NCBI GenBank assembly: GCA_045589295.1 | Contig: JAZNOU010000005.1 | Span: 64,001-128,000, forward strand | Reading direction: 5' to 3' | From: Clostridia bacterium | GTDB taxonomy: Bacteria > Bacillota > Clostridia > RGIG6154 | Length of the DNA: 64,000 nucleotides | Part shown: positions 55,394-64,000 of the stretch, piece after piece | Position numbering within the stretch: position 1 is the first letter of the stretch | How the letters are laid out: every line of letters starts with the position of its first letter | The notes under the pieces: model-generated | What the model saw: the letters and a program-made list of their open reading frames with translations, nothing else | The model's database searches: none | Told to the model about the DNA's origin: nothing | Position numbers and translations under genes: made by a program

Positions 55394-55411
55394 ATGAAAG
55401 GGTTTTTATAC

Positions 55412-56344
55412 ATGGCTAAGGTTTTTATTGACGGAAGTGCCGGAACAACGGGCTTAAGAATATACGACAGACTGTCATTAAGAGATGATATTTCTCTTAT
55501 AATTCTCCCCGACGAAATTAGAAAAGATACTTCCGCAAGAAAAGAAGCAATTAACAGTGCAGACATAGTTTTTTTATGTCTTCCAGATGATGCAGCAAGA
55601 GAAGCTGTAACCCTTCTTGAAAACAAAAACACTGTTATAATTGATACTTCTACTGCTCACCGAACAAATCCCGATTGGACGTATGGGTTCCCCGAGCTTA
55701 CCGCAATGAAAGAAAAAATAAAAAACTCAAAGCTTATTGCAAATCCGGGTTGTCACGCAAGCGGATTCATTGCTCTTGTTAAACCTTTGATAGAAAATGG
55801 GGCTTTAGATAAAGATGCTCTTCTTACATGTTTTTCAATCACAGGATACTCAGGTGGCGGCAAGAAAATGATAGCTGAATACGAAACGCCAAATAAAGAC
55901 AAGCTTTTTATGGCTCCAAGACAGTATGGACTTTCACAGATGCATAAACACCTGAAAGAAATGAAAGCAATTACAGGTATTTTAAACGACGCTGCATTTT
56001 GCCCAATTGTTGCTGACTTTTATAGCGGAATGGAAGTTACAATCCCGCTTTTTGCAAAAAACTTAAATGTAGACCTTGCACAAATCAAGGAAATATATAA
56101 AAACTGCTACCACTCAAAAATTGTTCACTATAACGAAGGTGTAGACGAAAACGGATTTTTATCTGCCGCAGCACTATCAGGCAGGGACGATATGCAGATT
56201 TCAGTTTTTGGGAATGATGAACGAATTACTGTTACTGCACGTTATGACAACCTTGGAAAAGGTGCATCAGGATCTGCAATTCAGAATATGAATATTGTTT
56301 TAGGTGTAGATGAAACAACAGGTCTTATTACGGAGGAATATTAA
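55412..56344 (+). CDS. argC: N-acetyl-gamma-glutamyl-phosphate reductase (short, type 2)
   Basis: KVFIDG.AGTTGL, ANPGC, GYSGGGK and DNLGKGASG motifs. Confidence 0.96.
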   Translation: MAKVFIDGSAGTTGLRIYDRLSLRDDISLIILPDEIRKDTSARKEAINSADIVFLCLPDDAAREAVTLLENKNTVIIDTSTAHRTNPDWTYGFPELTAMKEKIKNSKLIANPGCHASGFIALVKPLIENGALDKDALLTCFSITGYSGGGKKMIAEYETPNKDKLFMAPRQYGLSQMHKHLKEMKAITGILNDAAFCPIVADFYSGMEVTIPLFAKNLNVDLAQIKEIYKNCYHSKIVHYNEGVDENGFLSAAALSGRDDMQISVFGNDERITVTARYDNLGKGASGSAIQNMNIVLGVDETTGLITEEY

Positions 56345-56345
56345 A

Positions 56346-57560
56346 ATGAAAATCATAAACGGCGGTGTTACTGCTGCAAAAGGTTTTACTGCAGGCGGTG
56401 TACATTGCGGAATAAGGAAAAATAAAACAAAAAGAGATTTAGCTCTCATTTTAAGTGAAACAAGAGCTGCAGCTGCAGGGGTTTACACCACAAATCTCGT
56501 AAAGGGAGCTCCGCTTACAGTTACAAAAAATCATTTAGCCGACGGGTACGCTCAGGCAATAATCTGCAATAGCGGTAATGCAAACACTTGTAATGCTGAT
56601 GGTATCGAAGTTGCCGAAAACATGTCCACTCTTATCGCAAATGCGCTCGGCATTTCTGAAAATGATGTAATTGTAGCTTCAACAGGCGTAATCGGACAGC
56701 CTCTCGATATAACTCCTATTAAAGACGGAATTGGTGATTTAGTTTCATCACTTTCTAAAGACGGCTCTGAAAATGCTGCTGAAGGAATTATGACAACAGA
56801 TACTGTAAAAAAAGAAGTTGCAGTAGAGTTTGAAATTGGCGGAAAAGTATGCAAAATTGGCGGCATTGCAAAAGGCAGCGGTATGATACACCCAAATATG
56901 GCAACTATGCTTGTTTTTATCACAACTGACGTTAATATCTCTCCAAAAATGCTTCAGAATGCACTTTCAAATGATATAAAAAGCACTTTTAATATGGTCA
57001 GTGTTGATGGTGATACTTCAACAAACGATATGGTTACAGTTTTAGCTAATGGTATGGCAGAAAACCAGGAAATTGTATCAGAAGGAAAAGATTTTGACGT
57101 ATTTATGGAAGCATTAAATACTGTAACAGTTACGCTCTGCAGAATGATTGCAGGTGATGGCGAGGGTGCTACTAAGCTCTTAGAATGTAATGTTTTTAAT
57201 GCAAACAATGAACAAAACGCAAAAATTGTTGCAAAAAGTGTAATCTGTTCAAGCCTTTTAAAAGCAGCTATGTTTGGGGCTGACGCTAACTGGGGCCGCA
57301 TACTTTGTGCAATAGGTTACAGCGGTGCTGATGTTGACGTTAACAAAATTGATGTTTCATTCAAATCCTTAAAAGGTGAAATTTTAGTTTGCAAAAACGG
57401 AGCAGGCGTTGATTTTTCAGAAGAAAAAGCAAAAGAAATTCTTTTGGAAAAAGAAATCGAAATCAATATTAACTTAAATTCAGGCAATATCAACACTTCT
57501 GCCTGGGGTTGCGATTTAACTTATGACTATGTAAGAATCAACGGTGACTACCGCACCTGA
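56346..57560 (+). CDS. argJ: Ornithine acetyltransferase / N-acetylglutamate synthase
   Basis: KGSGMIHPNMATML, DTSTND, DGEGATK and INGDYRT motifs. Confidence 0.97.
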   Translation: MKIINGGVTAAKGFTAGGVHCGIRKNKTKRDLALILSETRAAAAGVYTTNLVKGAPLTVTKNHLADGYAQAIICNSGNANTCNADGIEVAENMSTLIANALGISENDVIVASTGVIGQPLDITPIKDGIGDLVSSLSKDGSENAAEGIMTTDTVKKEVAVEFEIGGKVCKIGGIAKGSGMIHPNMATMLVFITTDVNISPKMLQNALSNDIKSTFNMVSVDGDTSTNDMVTVLANGMAENQEIVSEGKDFDVFMEALNTVTVTLCRMIAGDGEGATKLLECNVFNANNEQNAKIVAKSVICSSLLKAAMFGADANWGRILCAIGYSGADVDVNKIDVSFKSLKGEILVCKNGAGVDFSEEKAKEILLEKEIEININLNSGNINTSAWGCDLTYDYVRINGDYRT

Positions 57561-57575
57561 TATTAGGAGGAAATT

Positions 57576-58451
57576 ATGCTTAAAAATTTTTCTAATGCTC
57601 AAAGAGCAGAAGTTTTAACCCAGGCTCTACCCTACATAAAACGTTACAATGGTAAAGTTGTTGTTGTAAAATACGGCGGAAACGCAATGGTAAATGAACA
57701 GCTAAAGCAACAAGTTATGGAAGATATTGTTCTTTTGTGGCTTATCGGCGTTAAAATTGTTCTTGTTCACGGTGGTGGACCTGAAATCAGCGAAACAATG
57801 GAAAAGCTGGGTAAAAAAGCCGAATTTGTGGACGGGCTGAGAGTTACAGATAAAGAAACCGTTGACATAGTTCAAATGGTGCTTGCCGGCAAGGTTAACA
57901 AAACTTTAGTTAATCTTTTGGAAATGTATGGCGGTAAAGCTATGGGTATTTCAGGTATGGACGGACGTCTTATTGAAGCTAAAGCCAAAAATGAAAAATT
58001 AGGATTTGTCGGCTCTATTACAAACATAAATATCAAGCCTGTTACAGACCTTTTGGAAAAAGGATACATTCCTGTTATCTCAACACTTGGCTGTGACAAA
58101 GATGGAAATACATATAATATTAACGGTGACACCGCAGCAGCTTATATTGCAGGTGCATTAAATGCAAAAAGACTTATTATGATGACCGACATCGCAGGTC
58201 TTTTAAAAGACAAAGACGACCCTTCAACTTTAATTCCAGAAATCACAATCAAAGAATGTGAAAATCTAAAAGAAACCGGTGTGATTTCAGGTGGTATGAT
58301 TCCAAAAATTGATTGCTGTATTGAAGCAATCAACGAAGGTGTTAAAAATGTAATTATTATGGACGGAAGAGTCCCCCACTCTATTTTAATGGAACTTTTA
58401 ACCGATGAGGGTGCGGGAACTATGGTTATAGGAGACCATGAAAATGAGTAA
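57576..58451 (+). CDS. argB: Acetylglutamate kinase
   Basis: VKYGGNA, VHGGGP, NINGD and GGMIPK motifs. Confidence 0.97.
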   Translation: MLKNFSNAQRAEVLTQALPYIKRYNGKVVVVKYGGNAMVNEQLKQQVMEDIVLLWLIGVKIVLVHGGGPEISETMEKLGKKAEFVDGLRVTDKETVDIVQMVLAGKVNKTLVNLLEMYGGKAMGISGMDGRLIEAKAKNEKLGFVGSITNINIKPVTDLLEKGYIPVISTLGCDKDGNTYNINGDTAAAYIAGALNAKRLIMMTDIAGLLKDKDDPSTLIPEITIKECENLKETGVISGGMIPKIDCCIEAINEGVKNVIIMDGRVPHSILMELLTDEGAGTMVIGDHENE

Positions 58452-59613
58452 CATCACAAACATTGATAAAACTTATGTTGCATCAACCTACGCACGTTTT
58501 CCTGTTGAAATTGTATCGGGAAAAGGTTCAATGGTTTATGACACTTCAGGCAAAGAATATATTGATATGGGTACCGGAATCGGCGTAACAGCTTTCGGTA
58601 TAGCAGATGAAATCTGGGTCAATGCAGTAACTAATCAACTTGGCAAACTTCAACACATGTCAAACCTTTATTATACCGAGCCTTGCGCACTTTTAGCCAA
58701 AGCTCTATGTGAAAAAACAGGAATGAAAAAAGTATTTTTCGGAAACTCAGGCGCTGAAGCAAACGAATGTGCCATTAAAGTTGCAAGAAAGTACGCTCAG
58801 GATAAAAAAGGCAGTGATTATTACACGATTATCACTTTGGAAAAAAGCTTTCACGGAAGAACTTTAACCACCCTTGCCGCAACAGGTCAGGATAATTTTC
58901 ATCAGCTTTTCAACCCTCTTACACCCGGATTTGTCCACACTCCTGCAAATGATATTGAGGCATTAAAAAGCACTGTCAAAAACAATAAAACTGCCGCAAT
59001 TATGATTGAATGCATTCAGGGTGAAGGCGGCGTTGTAGCACTTAATGAAGACTTTATTAAAGGTGTTTATGAAATTTGTCAGAAAGAAGACATTATTTTA
59101 ATAGTCGATGAAGTGCAAACAGGCAACGGCAGATGCGGCAAGCTTTATTCATATATGAATTTTGGCATTACTCCTGATGTTGTTACAACCGCAAAGGGAT
59201 TAGGCGGTGGTCTTCCTCTTGGTGCTTCAATATTAGGTGATAAAGTAAAAGATGTTTTAGGTTTTGGCGACCACGGCTCAACATTTGGCGGAAACCCTGT
59301 CGCTTGTGCAGGTGCACTCAGCATTATAGACCGAATTGATGACACTCTTTTAAACGAAGTCAGTGAAAAAAGCAAATTTATATTTGACAGTTTTAAAAAC
59401 GCCGACGGTGTTGAAAGTGTAAGTGGTATGGGACTTATGATTGGCATAAAAACAAAAAAAGCTGCCAAAGACATTGTAAATAAATGTATCGAAAATGGGG
59501 TTTTGTGTCTTACCGCAAAAGACAAAGTGCGTCTTTTACCTGCGCTTAACATTCCAATGGATGTTTTAAAGCGTGCAGTAGAGGTTATAAAAGACGCTTG
59601 CAAGGAGAACTGA
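58444..59613 (+). CDS. argD: Acetylornithine aminotransferase
   Basis: [19 protein letters not shown] and AKGLGGG motifs. Confidence 0.96.
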
Positions 59614-59615
59614 TT

Positions 59616-60599
59616 ATGAATTTAAAAGAAAAAAACTTTTTAAAACTTTTGGATTTTACTCCGGAAGAAATTAATTATTTAATTGACTATGCAGCACAGC
59701 TCAAAAAACAGAAAAAAGAGAATGTATCACACAAATTATTCCCAGATAAAAATATTGCTCTTATCTTTGAAAAAACTTCTACAAGAACACGTTGTGCTTT
59801 TGAGGTTGCAGCCTCAGACCTTGGTATGCACCCTGTTTACTTAGACCCTCAAGGCTCTCAAATCGGCAAAAAGGAAAGCATTGCAGACACAGCAAGAGTT
59901 TTAGGCAGAATGTTTGACGGAATTGAGTACCGAGGCTTTGGTCAGGAAATCGTAGAAGAGCTTGCTGAGTTTGCTGGGGTACCTGTGTGGAATGGCCTTA
60001 CGAACGAGTTTCACCCAACTCAGATTTTGGCGGACTTTTTAACGATAAAAGAACATTTTGGTTCTTTAAAAGGCAAAAAACTTGTTTATATGGGCGATGC
60101 AAGATACAATATGGGAAATTCTTTAATGGTTGGATGTGCAAAGATGGGTATGAACTTTGTTGCCTGTGCACCAAAAAAATATTTCCCCGATGATGCGCTT
60201 ATTAACGAATGCCTTGAAGTTGCAAAACAAACAGGTGCAGTCTTAGAATTTATCGAAGACCCAATTGAAGCTACAAAAAATGCAGATGTGATTTACACAG
60301 ATGTGTGGGTTTCAATGGGTGAACCTGCTGAGGTTTGGGAAGAACGTATAAAAGAGCTTTCACCTTACAGAGTAACTATGCAGCTTTTAGAAAATGCAGG
60401 CGAAAACTGCAAGTTTATGCACTGTCTGCCTGCTTTCCATGACTTAAAAACAACTGTTGGTAAAGAAATTTATGAAAAATTCGGTTTGACTTGTATGGAA
60501 GTTACTGATGAAGTGTTTGAAAGTGACAGTTCAATCGTATTTGACGAAGCCGAAAACCGTATGCACACAATAAAAGCTGTTATGGCAGCAACACTTTAA
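59616..60599 (+). CDS. argF: Ornithine carbamoyltransferase
   Basis: STRTR, HPTQ, SMG and HCLP motifs. Confidence 0.97.
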
Positions 60600-60603
60600 A
60601 ATT

Positions 60604-60637
60604 AAATGCAGAAACTTATTGGGTTTCTGCATTTTTT
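60604..60637 (+). terminator. Terminator of the arg operon
   Basis: AAATGCAGAAAC-ttattgg-GTTTCTGCATTTTTT. Confidence 0.85.
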
Positions 60638-60701
60638 ATTGATTTTTTTAACGATAAGTGATAAAATATTTTAAAGTTAGTCTTATATAACGGAGGTATT
60701 T

Positions 60702-63122
60702 ATGAAGCAGTATACAATTACGGGCATGAGTTGTGCCGCTTGCAGCAGTCGTGTTGAAAAAGCAGTCTGTACTGTTGATGGTGTTGAACAATGTTCGGTT
60801 AATCTTTTAACAAACACATTATCAGTAGAAGGTACTGCCAAAGATGATGATATAATTGTAGCTGTCATTCACGCAGGATATGGGGCATATCAAAAAGAAG
60901 AAAATATTAAAACAACCCAAAGTGGATCTGATATTTTTTCTTCTTTAAAAGCGCGACTTATTTCATCTTCAATTTTTTTGCTTGTGCTTATGTACATTTC
61001 GATGGGTCATACTATGTGGCATTTCCCGCTTCCCGAATTTCTTGAAAATAACCATTTCCTCCTGGGGTTTTCACAATTGATTTTATCAGCAATTGTCCTT
61101 ATTATAAACAAAAGCTTTTTTATAAATGGTATAAAAGGATTTTGGAATAAATCGCCTAATATGGATAGTTTAGTCGCTTTAGGTGCAGGCGTTTCTTTCG
61201 TCTACAGTGTCGCCGTTTTGTTCTTTGCCAACAATATTCACGACCTTTACTTTGAATCGGCAGCTATGATTTTGGTTTTAATAACAGTAGGAAAATTGCT
61301 TGAAGCCTACTCAAAAGGAAAAACAACTAATGCAATAAACTCCCTTATTAATCTTGCACCACAAACTGCAGTTGTTTTAAAAGACAATAATGAAATTGTT
61401 GTTCCAATTAACGAGCTTAAAGTTAGTGATATATTTGTTGTAAAACCAGGAGAAAGTATTCCTGCAGATGGGATAATAATTGAAGGTTTAACCACAGTTG
61501 ACGAGTCGATGCTAACAGGTGAGAGTATCCCTGTTGATAAAAATATCGGTGACAGCATTTCTGCTGCAACAGTAAATCAGACAGGTTATATAAAAGTTAA
61601 AACTACAGGTGTTGGTAATGATACTTTTTTAGCTCAAATAATAAAAATGGTAAGTGATGCATCAAGCACAAAAGCACCTATTGCTAAAACGGCAGATAAA
61701 GTATCAGGTATTTTTGTTCCAATTATAATTTTAATTGCAATTATAACGGTTATAGGTTGGATGATATTTGGGCAAACATTCGAATTTGCTCTTACAAGAG
61801 GTATTGGCGTTTTAGTGATCAGTTGCCCATGTGCATTGGGACTTGCAACACCGGTCGCTATTATGGTTGGCGGCGGCAAAGGCGCCCAAAACGGGATTCT
61901 TTTTAAAAACGCATCCTCACTCGAATACGCAGGTAAAATTACCGCCGTTGTACTGGACAAAACAGGAACTTTAACCAAAGGAACTCCCTGTGTTACTGAT
62001 ATAATTCCTCACGAATGTGAAGAAAAAGAACTTTTGACACTCGCATACTCACTTGAAAAACAAAGCGAGCACCCACTCGCCCGTGCAATAGTAAGTCACG
62101 CACAAGAAAAGAACGTTACAAGTATTGCGTGCGAAAATTTCAAAACCCTGCCCGGCAACGGACTTGAATGCTATATAAACCAAAAATTAATTCGTGGAGG
62201 AAACTTAAATTTTGTAAGTAAATTCACCTCCATTCCTCCAAATCTGATTACAGAAGCCGAATTTTTAGCTCTAAATGGCAAAACTCCTATGTTTTTCTGT
62301 TCAGATGACAAGTGCATTGGTATCATTGCTGTTGCAGATACATTAAAGGATGACTCCGCGCAGGATATAAAAACATTAAAACAGATGGGACTTTATGTTG
62401 TTATGCTCACAGGTGATAACAAAAAAACTGCTTCTGCTATTGCAAAATCCTTAGATATTGATGATGTTATCGCAGAAGTTTTGCCTGACGGAAAAGCTGA
62501 TGCAATCAAAATTCTTCAAAATAAACACAAAGTTATGATGGTAGGTGATGGAATTAACGACTCACCCGCTCTCACACAAGCAGACATTGGGATTGCAATA
62601 GGAACCGGAACGGATATTGCCATAAATTCTGCTGATGTAGTTTTAATGAGCGGAAGTCTTAAAAATGTGCCTGCAGCAATAACCTTGAGCAGAAAAACTC
62701 TCAAAAATATAAAAGAGAATCTCTTCTGGGCGTTTATTTATAATATAATTTCAATTCCGCTTGCAGCTGGACTTTTTATCATTCCCTTTGGTATAAAATT
62801 AAGTCCAATGATAGGCGCTGCAGCAATGAGTTTGTCCAGTTTTTGTGTTGTCACAAACGCACTTAGATTAAATTTTGTAAAACTATATAAAGAAGATAAG
62901 GAGAAAAAAGCTATGAAAAAAACATTAACAATTCAAGGTATGATGTGCCCTCACTGTGAGGCTGCAGTAAAAAAATGCTTAGAAGCACTCCCCGAAGTTA
63001 TTTCAGCGCACCCTAGCCATGAAACAAAAACAGCAATAGTTGAATTAAACACAGAAGTTGATACAAACTACTTAAAAAAAGCAGTCGAAGATGCAGGCTA
63101 TACCGTTTTGGATGTGAAATAA
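60702..63122 (+). CDS. copA: Cu(I)-type heavy-metal P1B ATPase with N- and C-terminal HMA domains
   Basis: GMSCAAC, TGES, CPC, DKTGT, SEHP, GDGIND, YN, MSLSS and C-terminal GMMCPHC. Confidence 0.93.
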
Positions 63123-63182: not shown

Positions 63183-63211
63183 TTTACTTAACAACAAATT
63201 TATGGTATTAT
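63183..63211 (+). promoter_or_regulatory. sigmaA promoter of the tRNA locus
   Basis: TTTACT-N17-TATTAT with extended TG. Confidence 0.55.
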
Positions 63212-63236: not shown

Positions 63237-63382
63237 CGAGGTGTGGCTCAGTTTGGTAGTACACCTTGGACACAGAGTATACTCAATAAAATTTAATAAT
63301 TATCCATTCATTAACCAAAATGAATGGTATTATCGGGAATTAGCGCAGTTTGGTAGTACACCTTGGACACAGAGTATACTCA
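63237..63382 (+). repeat. Two tRNA-Pro 5' fragments each followed by an identical 26-nt non-tRNA tail (37-bp direct repeat)
   Basis: CAGTTTGGTAGTACACCTTGGACACAGAGTATACTCA at 63249-63285 and 63346-63382. 63237-63259 is identical to tRNA nt 1-23 at 63515. Confidence 0.9.
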
Positions 63383-63514
63383 TTATATTTTTGTCACTAC
63401 AAAAAAATTCGCCGTTTTTTGACCTTTCGTTCAAAATCGGAGTAGTCATTAAAATGCCTTGCCGTATTTGGCCGACTACAATTTATATTTTGAAAATTGA
63501 ATAAATAATAATAT

Positions 63515-63591
63515 CGAGGTGTGGCTCAGTTTGGTAGAGTACTTCGTTCGGGACGAAGGGGCCGCAGGTTCAAATCCTGTCACCTCGACCA
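63515..63591 (+). tRNA. tRNA-Pro (CGG)
   Basis: CGAGGTG/CACCTCG acceptor stem, CTTCG-TTCGGGA-CGAAG anticodon arm, GGTTCAAATCC T arm and encoded CCA. Confidence 0.97.
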
Positions 63592-63592
63592 T

Positions 63593-63636
63593 AAAAAGGG
63601 ATTGCTATTCAAAAGACGAATAGTAATCCTTTTTTA
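63593..63636. terminator. Bidirectional terminator after the tRNA
   Basis: AAAAAGGGATTGCTATTC...GAATAGTAATCCTTTTTT. Confidence 0.8.
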
Positions 63637-63663: not shown

Positions 63664-64000
63664 TTAAGAAGATAATGCTTGAAACCCTAATCCGTTTTCA
63701 AACTGTTCTAAGTTAATTTTGAAATTAACTGTTAATTCATACCCTTTCTTTACTGATATACTATCTATAAGATGTGCAACAATAATTTGTTTTGTTTGTA
63801 AATCAGCATTTTCATAAACATCAGCCCATTTGATAATGTTGTTATATTCTTGTTCTATTTCATAACAGTTTTTCTGTAGCTCCTCAAAGTCTGTTTCACA
63901 TCTTTGTACTTGTTCTAATAAAGGCTGTACTTCATTTTTCAATCTCTTTAGAATTTGAAGTAATTCTTTGACAACTTCATCAAATTGAGATGCACTTACA
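63664..64000 (-). CDS. C-terminus of a probable large serine recombinase (runs off window end)
   Basis: The frame is open to the window edge. A coiled coil is followed by WADVYENADLQTKQIIVAHLIDSISVKKGYELTVNF, typical of recombinase C-termini. The catalytic domain is not visible. Confidence 0.6.
   Translation of the reverse strand, partial: VSASQFDEVVKELLQILKRLKNEVQPLLEQVQRCETDFEELQKNCYEIEQEYNNIIKWADVYENADLQTKQIIVAHLIDSISVKKGYELTVNFKINLEQFENGLGFQALSS

Follow-up and report, generated by a model that had tools for sequence, protein, structure and literature searches.

In tRNA-dependent lysogeny, described for actinobacteriophages, tyrosine integrases recombine at cores of 8-17 bp; the requirement for the tRNA was tested in that work, and in the accessible part of its text the authors only speculate on tandem integration into an element-borne tRNA (Guerrero-Bustamante and Hatfull 2024, PMC10865867). 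In Rhizobium vTRX32-1-like prophages, as given in the available portion of PMC8631192, the host tRNA gene is interrupted and replaced by a whole phage tRNA, which is without the 12-bp site, and the authors presume that super-integration is prevented. Tandem accretion of ICEs, IMEs and CIMEs involves tyrosine integrases, the 3' ends of genes and kb-sized remnants, and site-specific serine IMEs break dispensable genes (both from sections of PMC5704250). A preference of serine integrases for coding sequences is reported in the accessible text of a provirus survey (PMC13626063). The word 'tRNA' has no occurrence in the available text, supplements aside, of a survey of large serine recombinases (LSRs; PMC10083194), and the accessible parts of PMC12884075 and PMC11476347 hold nothing on D-loop sites. 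Our literature search found no description of a serine integrase that acts on the D-loop of a tRNA gene; such sites may stand unremarked in att tables that accompany large surveys.

Here, we describe a stack of split tRNA-Pro(CGG) 5' ends in a Clostridia bacterium. With a probability of roughly 85%, we read the array as two stacked attL junctions that stem from successive integrations of LSR elements, each carrying a whole spare tRNA inside its left end.

The locus, its resident island and the putative attachment site

The window, i.e. the whole 64,000-nt stretch of DNA that was analysed, corresponds to positions 64001-128000 of contig C5 of a 1.54-Mb assembly (genome G000); plain positions refer to the window and positions with the prefix C5 to the contig. 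An earlier note on the window had described three modules, and all three lie where it placed them: two tRNA fragments each followed by a tail (63237-63285 and 63334-63382) and an intact tRNA (63515-63591), with spacings of 97 and 181 nt and with each fragment ending after nt 23 (Table 1). The promoter it had set before them holds in part: a promoter-like site is present at 63183-63211, but this is a 9/12 match only, and three such sites were found against 2.7 expected from shuffling. The left flank (55394-63122) contains arginine biosynthesis genes and a copper-type P-ATPase, which we take to be ordinary host genes.

Table 1. Coordinates of features at the locus; roles as attachment-site arms and element ends are predicted from the sequence.
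Feature	Position	Strand	Basis or match
Promoter-like site, extended -10	63183..63211	+	9/12 consensus match only
Host tRNA-Pro(CGG) nt 1-23, B arm of outer attL	63237..63259	+	same as intact gene of G001
Central dinucleotide AG, outer attL	63258-63259	+	
26-nt tail, P' arm of attP, outer attL	63260..63285	+	inverted match C5:143134-143159
Type-a spacer, putative left end of earlier element	63286..63333	+	matches G403, G404
Hairpin in type-a spacer	about 63304-63327		z -3.37; stem kept, loop variable in G403-G405
Probable spare tRNA-Pro 5' half of earlier element, B arm of inner attL	63334..63356	+	same allele in G403/G404
Central AG, inner attL	63355-63356	+	
Second tail copy, identical, P' arm of inner attL	63357..63382	+	
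Type-b spacer, left end of resident island	63383..63514	+	matches L052
Whole tRNA-Pro(CGG) inside island, itself an intact target site	63515..63591	+	ARAGORN; Rfam 64.1 bits
Hairpin flanked on each side by A/T runs, in the gap separating the convergent tRNA and recombinase genes	63593..63636	.	sequence inspection
LSR gene, 3' end	63664..64000, onward to C5:129316	-	Pfam
attR (P arm, AG, host tRNA 3' part)	C5:143134-143215		

The tail is found exactly twice in the 1.54-Mb genome, even with five mismatches allowed, so that its repetition is not a matter of chance. The 3' partner of the host 5' half at 63237 is tRNA nt 24-77 at C5:143162-143215, and in two further genomes, G403 and G404, the whole tRNA borne by the element has the same nt 1-23 as the second 5' half (63334..63356). 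Only the internal gene is called as a tRNA by ARAGORN, and neither attL nor attR rebuilds a functional tRNA. This internal gene is the sole tRNA-Pro(CGG) of the assembly, in which a tRNA-Pro(UGG) is also present.

The stack belongs to a low-GC island of 15,900 bp (29.3% GC, with flanks at 37.4% and 36.4%) whose right end, beyond the window, is a perfect 60-nt copy of tRNA nt 18-77 (C5:143156-143215). The whole tRNA and an intact LSR gene are situated between attL and attR; judged by sequence, module 1 represents the host junction attL, attR forms the right end, and the intact tRNA belongs to the island. The earlier note had suggested comparing empty with filled alleles, and such a pair exists: in the congener G001 the tRNA is uninterrupted, the promoter region standing directly before an identical whole tRNA with no tail, and the site of G000 is filled. 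Of the promoter region, 56 of 74 columns are conserved between the two genomes (the G001 contig stops 49 nt past the tRNA, and the comparison covers the left flank). On the other side, the 45 nt past attR agree at 36 positions with the sequence that follows the tRNA 3' part in the congener G002.

The LSR comprises 550 aa and its gene points toward the intact tRNA. PF00239 (Resolvase) and PF07508 (Recombinase) pass the Pfam cut-off over residues 40-550, the zinc ribbon PF13408 lies slightly under it (23.5 vs 25.3 bits), and homologues carry all three domains. The motif L-Y-R-x-S is invariant across 25 LSR homologues; in G000 it reads LYRNS, with Asn replacing the usual Val of YRxS, and the protein sits on a long branch, two traits that speak against taking its activity for granted. 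The tree, a quick version used solely for the grouping of the Pro(CGG) LSRs, places these together. A PDB sequence search with the LSR returned no match, hence no solved-structure relative by sequence. We predict that the enzyme crosses over at the D-loop AG of tRNA-Pro(CGG). A 59-aa ORF (C5:129285-129464) overlaps the LSR start and is 64-81% conserved in G403, G095 and L053; as a guess, it might encode a directionality factor. The hairpin at 63593..63636, kept in the same three relatives, was not listed by the terminator scan and is likely to act as a bidirectional terminator.

Among 13 island proteins scanned, four pass Pfam cut-offs; the island encodes a rolling-circle Rep, a Ser/Thr kinase, a small tyrosine recombinase and AbiH, and no virion gene was detected with Pfam. 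The abortive-infection protein AbiH lies at C5:139887-140744 and the kinase, beside an HTH regulator, at C5:136890-138434. Several hairpins of the type-b spacer (63383-63514) are kept in both the G000 and the L052 copies (two sequences, n=2). Elsewhere on the contig, a second low-GC island (C5:151000-175100) with a tyrosine-integrase-like ORF ends at tRNA-Leu(TAA).

The tail and the arm at C5:143134-143159 form an inverted match of 19/26 positions in a sole register, centred on the D-loop AG; other registers give 3-9 matches, and 0 of 20,000 shuffles reach 19/26. Since the inverted copy is centred on AG, tail and right arm appear to be two halves of one attachment site. All six attL/attR pairs tested (G000, G403, G337, G134, G073 and G068) are palindromic at 19-21 of 26 positions, though the pairs of G073 and G134 are not independent, their LSRs being identical, and each of the three Asn pairs was assembled across contigs. 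In each pair this is seen in the AG-centred register only (20/26 in G403; best other register 9-12; 0/20,000 shuffles), and the tRNA side of the site is symmetric at only 4-8 of 21 positions. The attP of Bxb1 measures 48 bp and has interrupted inverted repeats around a central dinucleotide (accessible text of PMC1470463), and the shape of the site described here fits a serine-integrase attP of that kind. No free attP carrying the G000 tail was found, the exact 26-nt tail having no occurrence in viral contigs. A 17-nt tail pattern gave one match, in GC-rich DNA, which was taken as chance; a 13-nt attR pattern (five genomes) was dropped because its reversed control was equally frequent, and a tRNA query was used instead.

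Relatives in other genomes and in viral contigs

The tRNA-plus-tail pattern was found in 2 of 401 class genomes, at six loci in a species-level genome collection (one being G095) and on two metagenome contigs. Together with G000, nine tRNA-Pro(CGG) loci carry the tail, six with one unit and three with two. The earlier note had expected the tail to recur across Clostridia with varying unit number, rather than to be unique and invariant, and in this it was borne out; the cargo it had sought within the units was not there, as these contain only spacers of 40-132 nt. An LSR at 82-100% identity is located near the tRNA in five of the nine loci, L052 covering only the last 60 residues.

In G403, attL, whole tRNA, LSR and attR lie on a single contig, in a locus of 13.6 kb. 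Both split halves, whose acceptor stem matches, belong to one allele and the whole gene to another, which identifies the whole tRNA as cargo. Across the tail loci, outer 5' half and whole gene are unlike in 5/9 and identical in 4/9; G000 belongs to the latter, and since its whole tRNA is identical to the host allele, import is not demonstrable from G000 alone. A whole Pro(CGG) tRNA is borne by the element in G000, G403, G095, L052 and L053, and relatives bear Pro(TGG), Ala or Asn tRNAs.

Distant LSRs (30-40% identity) were detected in 13 of 399 class genomes, with four further among 401 phylum genomes. Fifteen of 19 places with an LSR homologue adjoin a tRNA junction at the same AG (read by eye), the genes concerned being tRNA-Pro(CGG), Pro(TGG), Ala or Asn. 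The remaining four are two contig ends, one fragment and one place inside a protein gene, which we take to be radC-like from its motif. At this AG, related LSRs also cut the genes of tRNA-Pro(TGG), -Ala, -Asn and -Val, and the homologues amount to 2,639 protein clusters at E <= 1e-30.

Three of the five D-loop arrays are mixed (G000, L053 and L174) and two consist of identical units (G095 and G093). The two units of L053 are unlike, and the three of L174 follow an x-y-x order; the units of G095 (98 + 98 nt) and G093 (101 + 101 nt) are identical or near-identical. Four unit-bearing genomes gave no LSR homologue (0/4, with G403 as positive control), and a search of three of these four found no attR-type fragment, these genomes being metagenome assemblies, in which absence is not proved. 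On the G404 contig, about 12 kb of housekeeping-type ORFs lie downstream, and its tRNA is of the element's allele, at 100% over 74 nt. By their layout, the LSR-less units look like orphan scars before a permanently adopted, element-supplied tRNA.

Single parts of the architecture were seen at further places. On contig C1 of G073 (L097/L105), two tandem attR-like tRNA-Asn 3' parts with different arms follow an LSR, and on contig C59 of the same genome (L100) an orphan attR-like tRNA-Asn 3' part lies behind a whole tRNA-Asn. The Ruminococcus albus 7 plasmid pRUMAL02 encodes an LSR-family member (WP_013483758.1; L132:19992-21760) followed by a tRNA-Asn 3' part that is broken at the D-loop AG; neither a partner attL nor a whole tRNA-Asn was found in the 90 kb read.

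A single LSR query retrieved no close viral relative; a search of viral contigs with an alignment of 25 homologues retrieved 78 loci. Thirteen were too short, 13 have an attR-like D-loop junction, 15 have a whole tRNA beside the LSR and 36 have no tRNA junction within 1 kb (by rule); L154, flagged attR-like by the rule, was dropped as it breaks elsewhere. The phage contigs L219 and L220 contain an AG-centred palindrome of 16 and 17/22 (reached by 3 and 0 of 1000 shuffles), situated 89 nt before a whole tRNA-Ala. The convergent LSR comes next, and the genes on its other side are phage-like. To judge by this order, the two contigs show the un-integrated site of a relative element. Weak palindromes before whole tRNAs in L202, L204 and L209 (12-13/22; 69-117 of 1000 shuffles) were not counted as attP.

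Some element-borne tRNA-Ala genes have altered D-loops, namely those of L185 (central AG changed), L062 (G012) and L129 (G576); such spare tRNAs are possibly immune to their own integrase. In L178, an LSR and a whole tRNA-Ala stand directly behind the host promoter with no attL, and the close relative L174 has three; in L178 a deletion between repeated 5' halves may have removed attL and locked the element. ARAGORN sometimes calls attR junctions as whole tRNAs (L158-L160, L197, L201 and L059-L061) because the P arm imitates the acceptor strand, and genes called in this way may be miscounted in annotations.

A second stack system exists in congeners at the same tRNA, with the break in the anticodon loop and a shared core of 9 bp. 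Its units measure about 200 bp and contain repeated arm-like motifs (loci L022, L026, L031, L024, L030, L032, L033 and L035). Two 5' fragments are present in G002 (L022, G002:C4:1-260) and two plus a whole tRNA in G003 (L026:3208-3690), where a tyrosine integrase is encoded 1.4 kb downstream; matching 3' fragments occur in G002, G011, G013 and G017.

Origin of the stack and competing explanations

Over a stretch of 111 nt, unit 1 (tail, 48-nt spacer and second 5' half) shares 95.5% identity with the left end of the G403 element; its identity to G404 is 93.7%. Unit 2, with its 132-nt type-b spacer, shows 79.6% identity over 280 nt (flanks included) to the left end of the L052 element, in which the type-b spacer follows a single attL. 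Module 2 is likely the cut spare tRNA of an earlier element, as its spacer and allele suggest. The two successive insertions proposed in the earlier note survive, and so does the crossover in the D-loop, but not as mini-cassettes of 97 and 181 bp: the 97-bp unit matches the left end of the full-size G403 element, the 181-bp unit forms the left border of an island of 15.9 kb that has not been lost, and instead of a replacement 5' end that restores the gene the element carries a whole tRNA.

The simplest history of the stack is a serial one of three steps. An element a, with the type-a spacer and its own tRNA allele, would have entered the host gene at the D-loop AG, leaving its spare tRNA 97 bp downstream, where it was likely transcribed from the host promoter. 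An element b would then have integrated into the spare of a, which was open to it because the spare keeps the target site, and this would have created the inner attL. One body and one attR would then have been lost, a single attR being present and no second one found inside the island, most likely when the two elements, being alike, recombined; an exchange between their similar LSR genes or cargo would suffice. Alternatively, the stack might have been built in an earlier host and have arrived on one circle. Where an element excises from an inner attL, or its body is lost, what stays behind would be an orphan scar before an element-supplied tRNA, the state seen in four other genomes.

Strong promoter matches (10-12/12) precede the outer fragment at 8 of 15 loci, and in tail plus spacer no promoter above 9/12 was found in any of the 15, for which reason the tail was rejected as a promoter for the spare tRNA. 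The distance between the crossover and the spare tRNA is 89-181 bp in 15/15 loci. In these islands the spare tRNA is likely read through from the host promoter, with its leader trimmed; this is not general, since the phage forms L219, L220 and L209 have a promoter-like site within the spacer (by eye). One guess is that the short distance hinders an element from recombining with its own tRNA. tRNA-Pro(UGG) can serve by wobble reading, and tRNA-Pro(CGG) may be dispensable beside it, in which case replacement would be needed less than for tRNA-Asn.

Four other explanations were weighed against that of two stacked attL junctions. Free-standing mini-cassettes of 97 and 181 bp, integrating serially at the D-loop like integron cassettes and mobilised in trans by the neighbouring recombinase, would agree with a unit number that varies from 1 to 3 and with the four genomes that have the unit without an LSR, and recombination of attP with the element's own tRNA could in principle release such a small circle. 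Each spacer type, however, is also the left end of a full LSR element (G403 with attR; L052, L053), the units hold no cargo, and a circle of tail, spacer and 5' half would carry an attL-type junction, the wrong substrate: serine integrases join attP to attB, not attL to attB (available part of PMC1470463). With the attR in place, which largely refutes it, we regard this explanation as very unlikely. A plain integron or gene-cassette array, to which the earlier note had likened the locus, was rejected on the lack of an attC-like fold and of cargo and on the adjacent enzyme being an LSR. A classical tRNA island, with the 3' part duplicated and the gene rebuilt at attL, was likewise rejected, since the arm before the 3' fragment pairs with the upstream tail and not with the tRNA; it is also excluded by G403, where the allele of the intact gene differs from both halves. 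A history of one integration, local tandem duplication by slippage between tRNA 5' halves, and then decay is most unlikely for G000, where the two spacers are unrelated (48 vs 132 nt) and each matches another element (G403 and L052), and where the 5' halves are different alleles beside identical tails; L053 and L174 are mixed as well, so that three of the five D-loop arrays are not duplications. For the identical or near-identical units of G095 and G093, slippage fits equally well as self-superinfection.

That the fragments are functional tRNA-like small RNAs freed by RNase P, as the earlier note had offered as an alternative, is extremely unlikely. A promoter-like site does precede them and they are probably part of a transcribed leader, and the first 7-9 nt of module 1 can pair with the tail; this pairing is limited to one allele, however, and the tail is conserved beside non-pairing alleles. 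The DNA palindrome accounts for the conservation of the tail, no Rfam match was obtained for the fragments, and folding compared with shuffles gave z -1.29, no improvement on shuffled sequence, for module 1 and +1.17, i.e. worse than shuffled, for module 2. Equally hard to credit is that the junctions are made by the small tyrosine recombinase encoded within the island (191 aa, C5:138939-139514) and not by the LSR. It occurs in both complete Pro(CGG) islands, G000 and G403, at 94% identity, but in only 2 of 18 loci tested (most of them partial), and the AG junction tracks the LSR family across four tRNA types. Moreover, the arms meet directly at a 2-bp centre, the two junctions share no overlap of 6-8 bp, and the protein is without an arm-binding domain.

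Comparison with known systems

Beyond the locus, a wider picture suggests itself, which we offer tentatively and at slightly under even odds. A widespread LSR clade in Clostridia and their phages, represented by the clusters counted above, would cut the tRNA D-loop and deliver a whole tRNA that regenerates its own landing site. The process would act as a ratchet in which each visit leaves a junction of about 100 bp, in order of arrival, and where the body is lost the host would keep the element tRNA for good. tRNA genes, that of the essential tRNA-Asn included, would be replaced horizontally in this way, and some elements would alter the D-loop of the spare and block super-integration. If our reading of the locus itself holds, tRNA-dependent integration extends from tyrosine to serine integrases and to a D-loop crossover, each stack amounts to a chronological record of the elements that visited it, and the orphan scars point to a way in which lineages could exchange 'core' tRNA genes. 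The reconstructed attP/attB pairs for four tRNA types are testable in a simple plasmid assay, and an integrase with target-restoring cargo offers a ready-made design for repeated insertion at a single clostridial site. Island finders that seek a tRNA plus a 3' fragment would meet a 60-bp direct repeat here and misplace the left border and the core.

Among LSR systems, the locus shares the combination of Resolvase, Recombinase and zinc ribbon, an imperfectly palindromic attP of about 50 bp with a central dinucleotide, a dissimilar attB and the position of the gene at the element end. phiC31 and A118 are further LSR systems with attP, attB, attL and attR. Known site-specific LSRs, in contrast, mostly break dispensable protein genes without repair. 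The elements of Zhao and Williams (2002) reportedly carry a tRNA 5' copy that rebuilds the gene at the junction; as in such 5'-restoring elements, a tRNA 5' fragment lies beside the element, but here neither junction rebuilds the gene.

As in ICE/IME/CIME accretion, the newcomer enters the site of a resident or decayed element, inner junctions stay and the composite can move as a whole. Unlike in ICE accretion, the target is a complete cargo gene, and the remnant is about 100 bp long and lies upstream of a working tRNA. In the Rhizobium prophages super-integration is presumed to be prevented, whereas here the spare keeps the site and super-integration left stacks.

The likeness to tRNA-dependent lysogeny lies in the short core within a tRNA, the absence of a rebuilt tRNA at either junction and the whole cognate tRNA that is carried. 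The differences are the serine integrase, the 2-bp centre in the D-loop, the distance of 89-181 bp to the tRNA and the natural stacks; moreover, the hosts here are Clostridia islands and phages, and the accessible text of PMC10865867 does not contain 'D-loop'. The island itself does not qualify as a temperate phage, and it has relatives in viral contigs. By analogy, the system works like tRNA-dependent lysogeny and is not a member of it, since its integrase would not be of the tyrosine type. What this locus adds to the known systems is mixed attL stacks and orphan scars.
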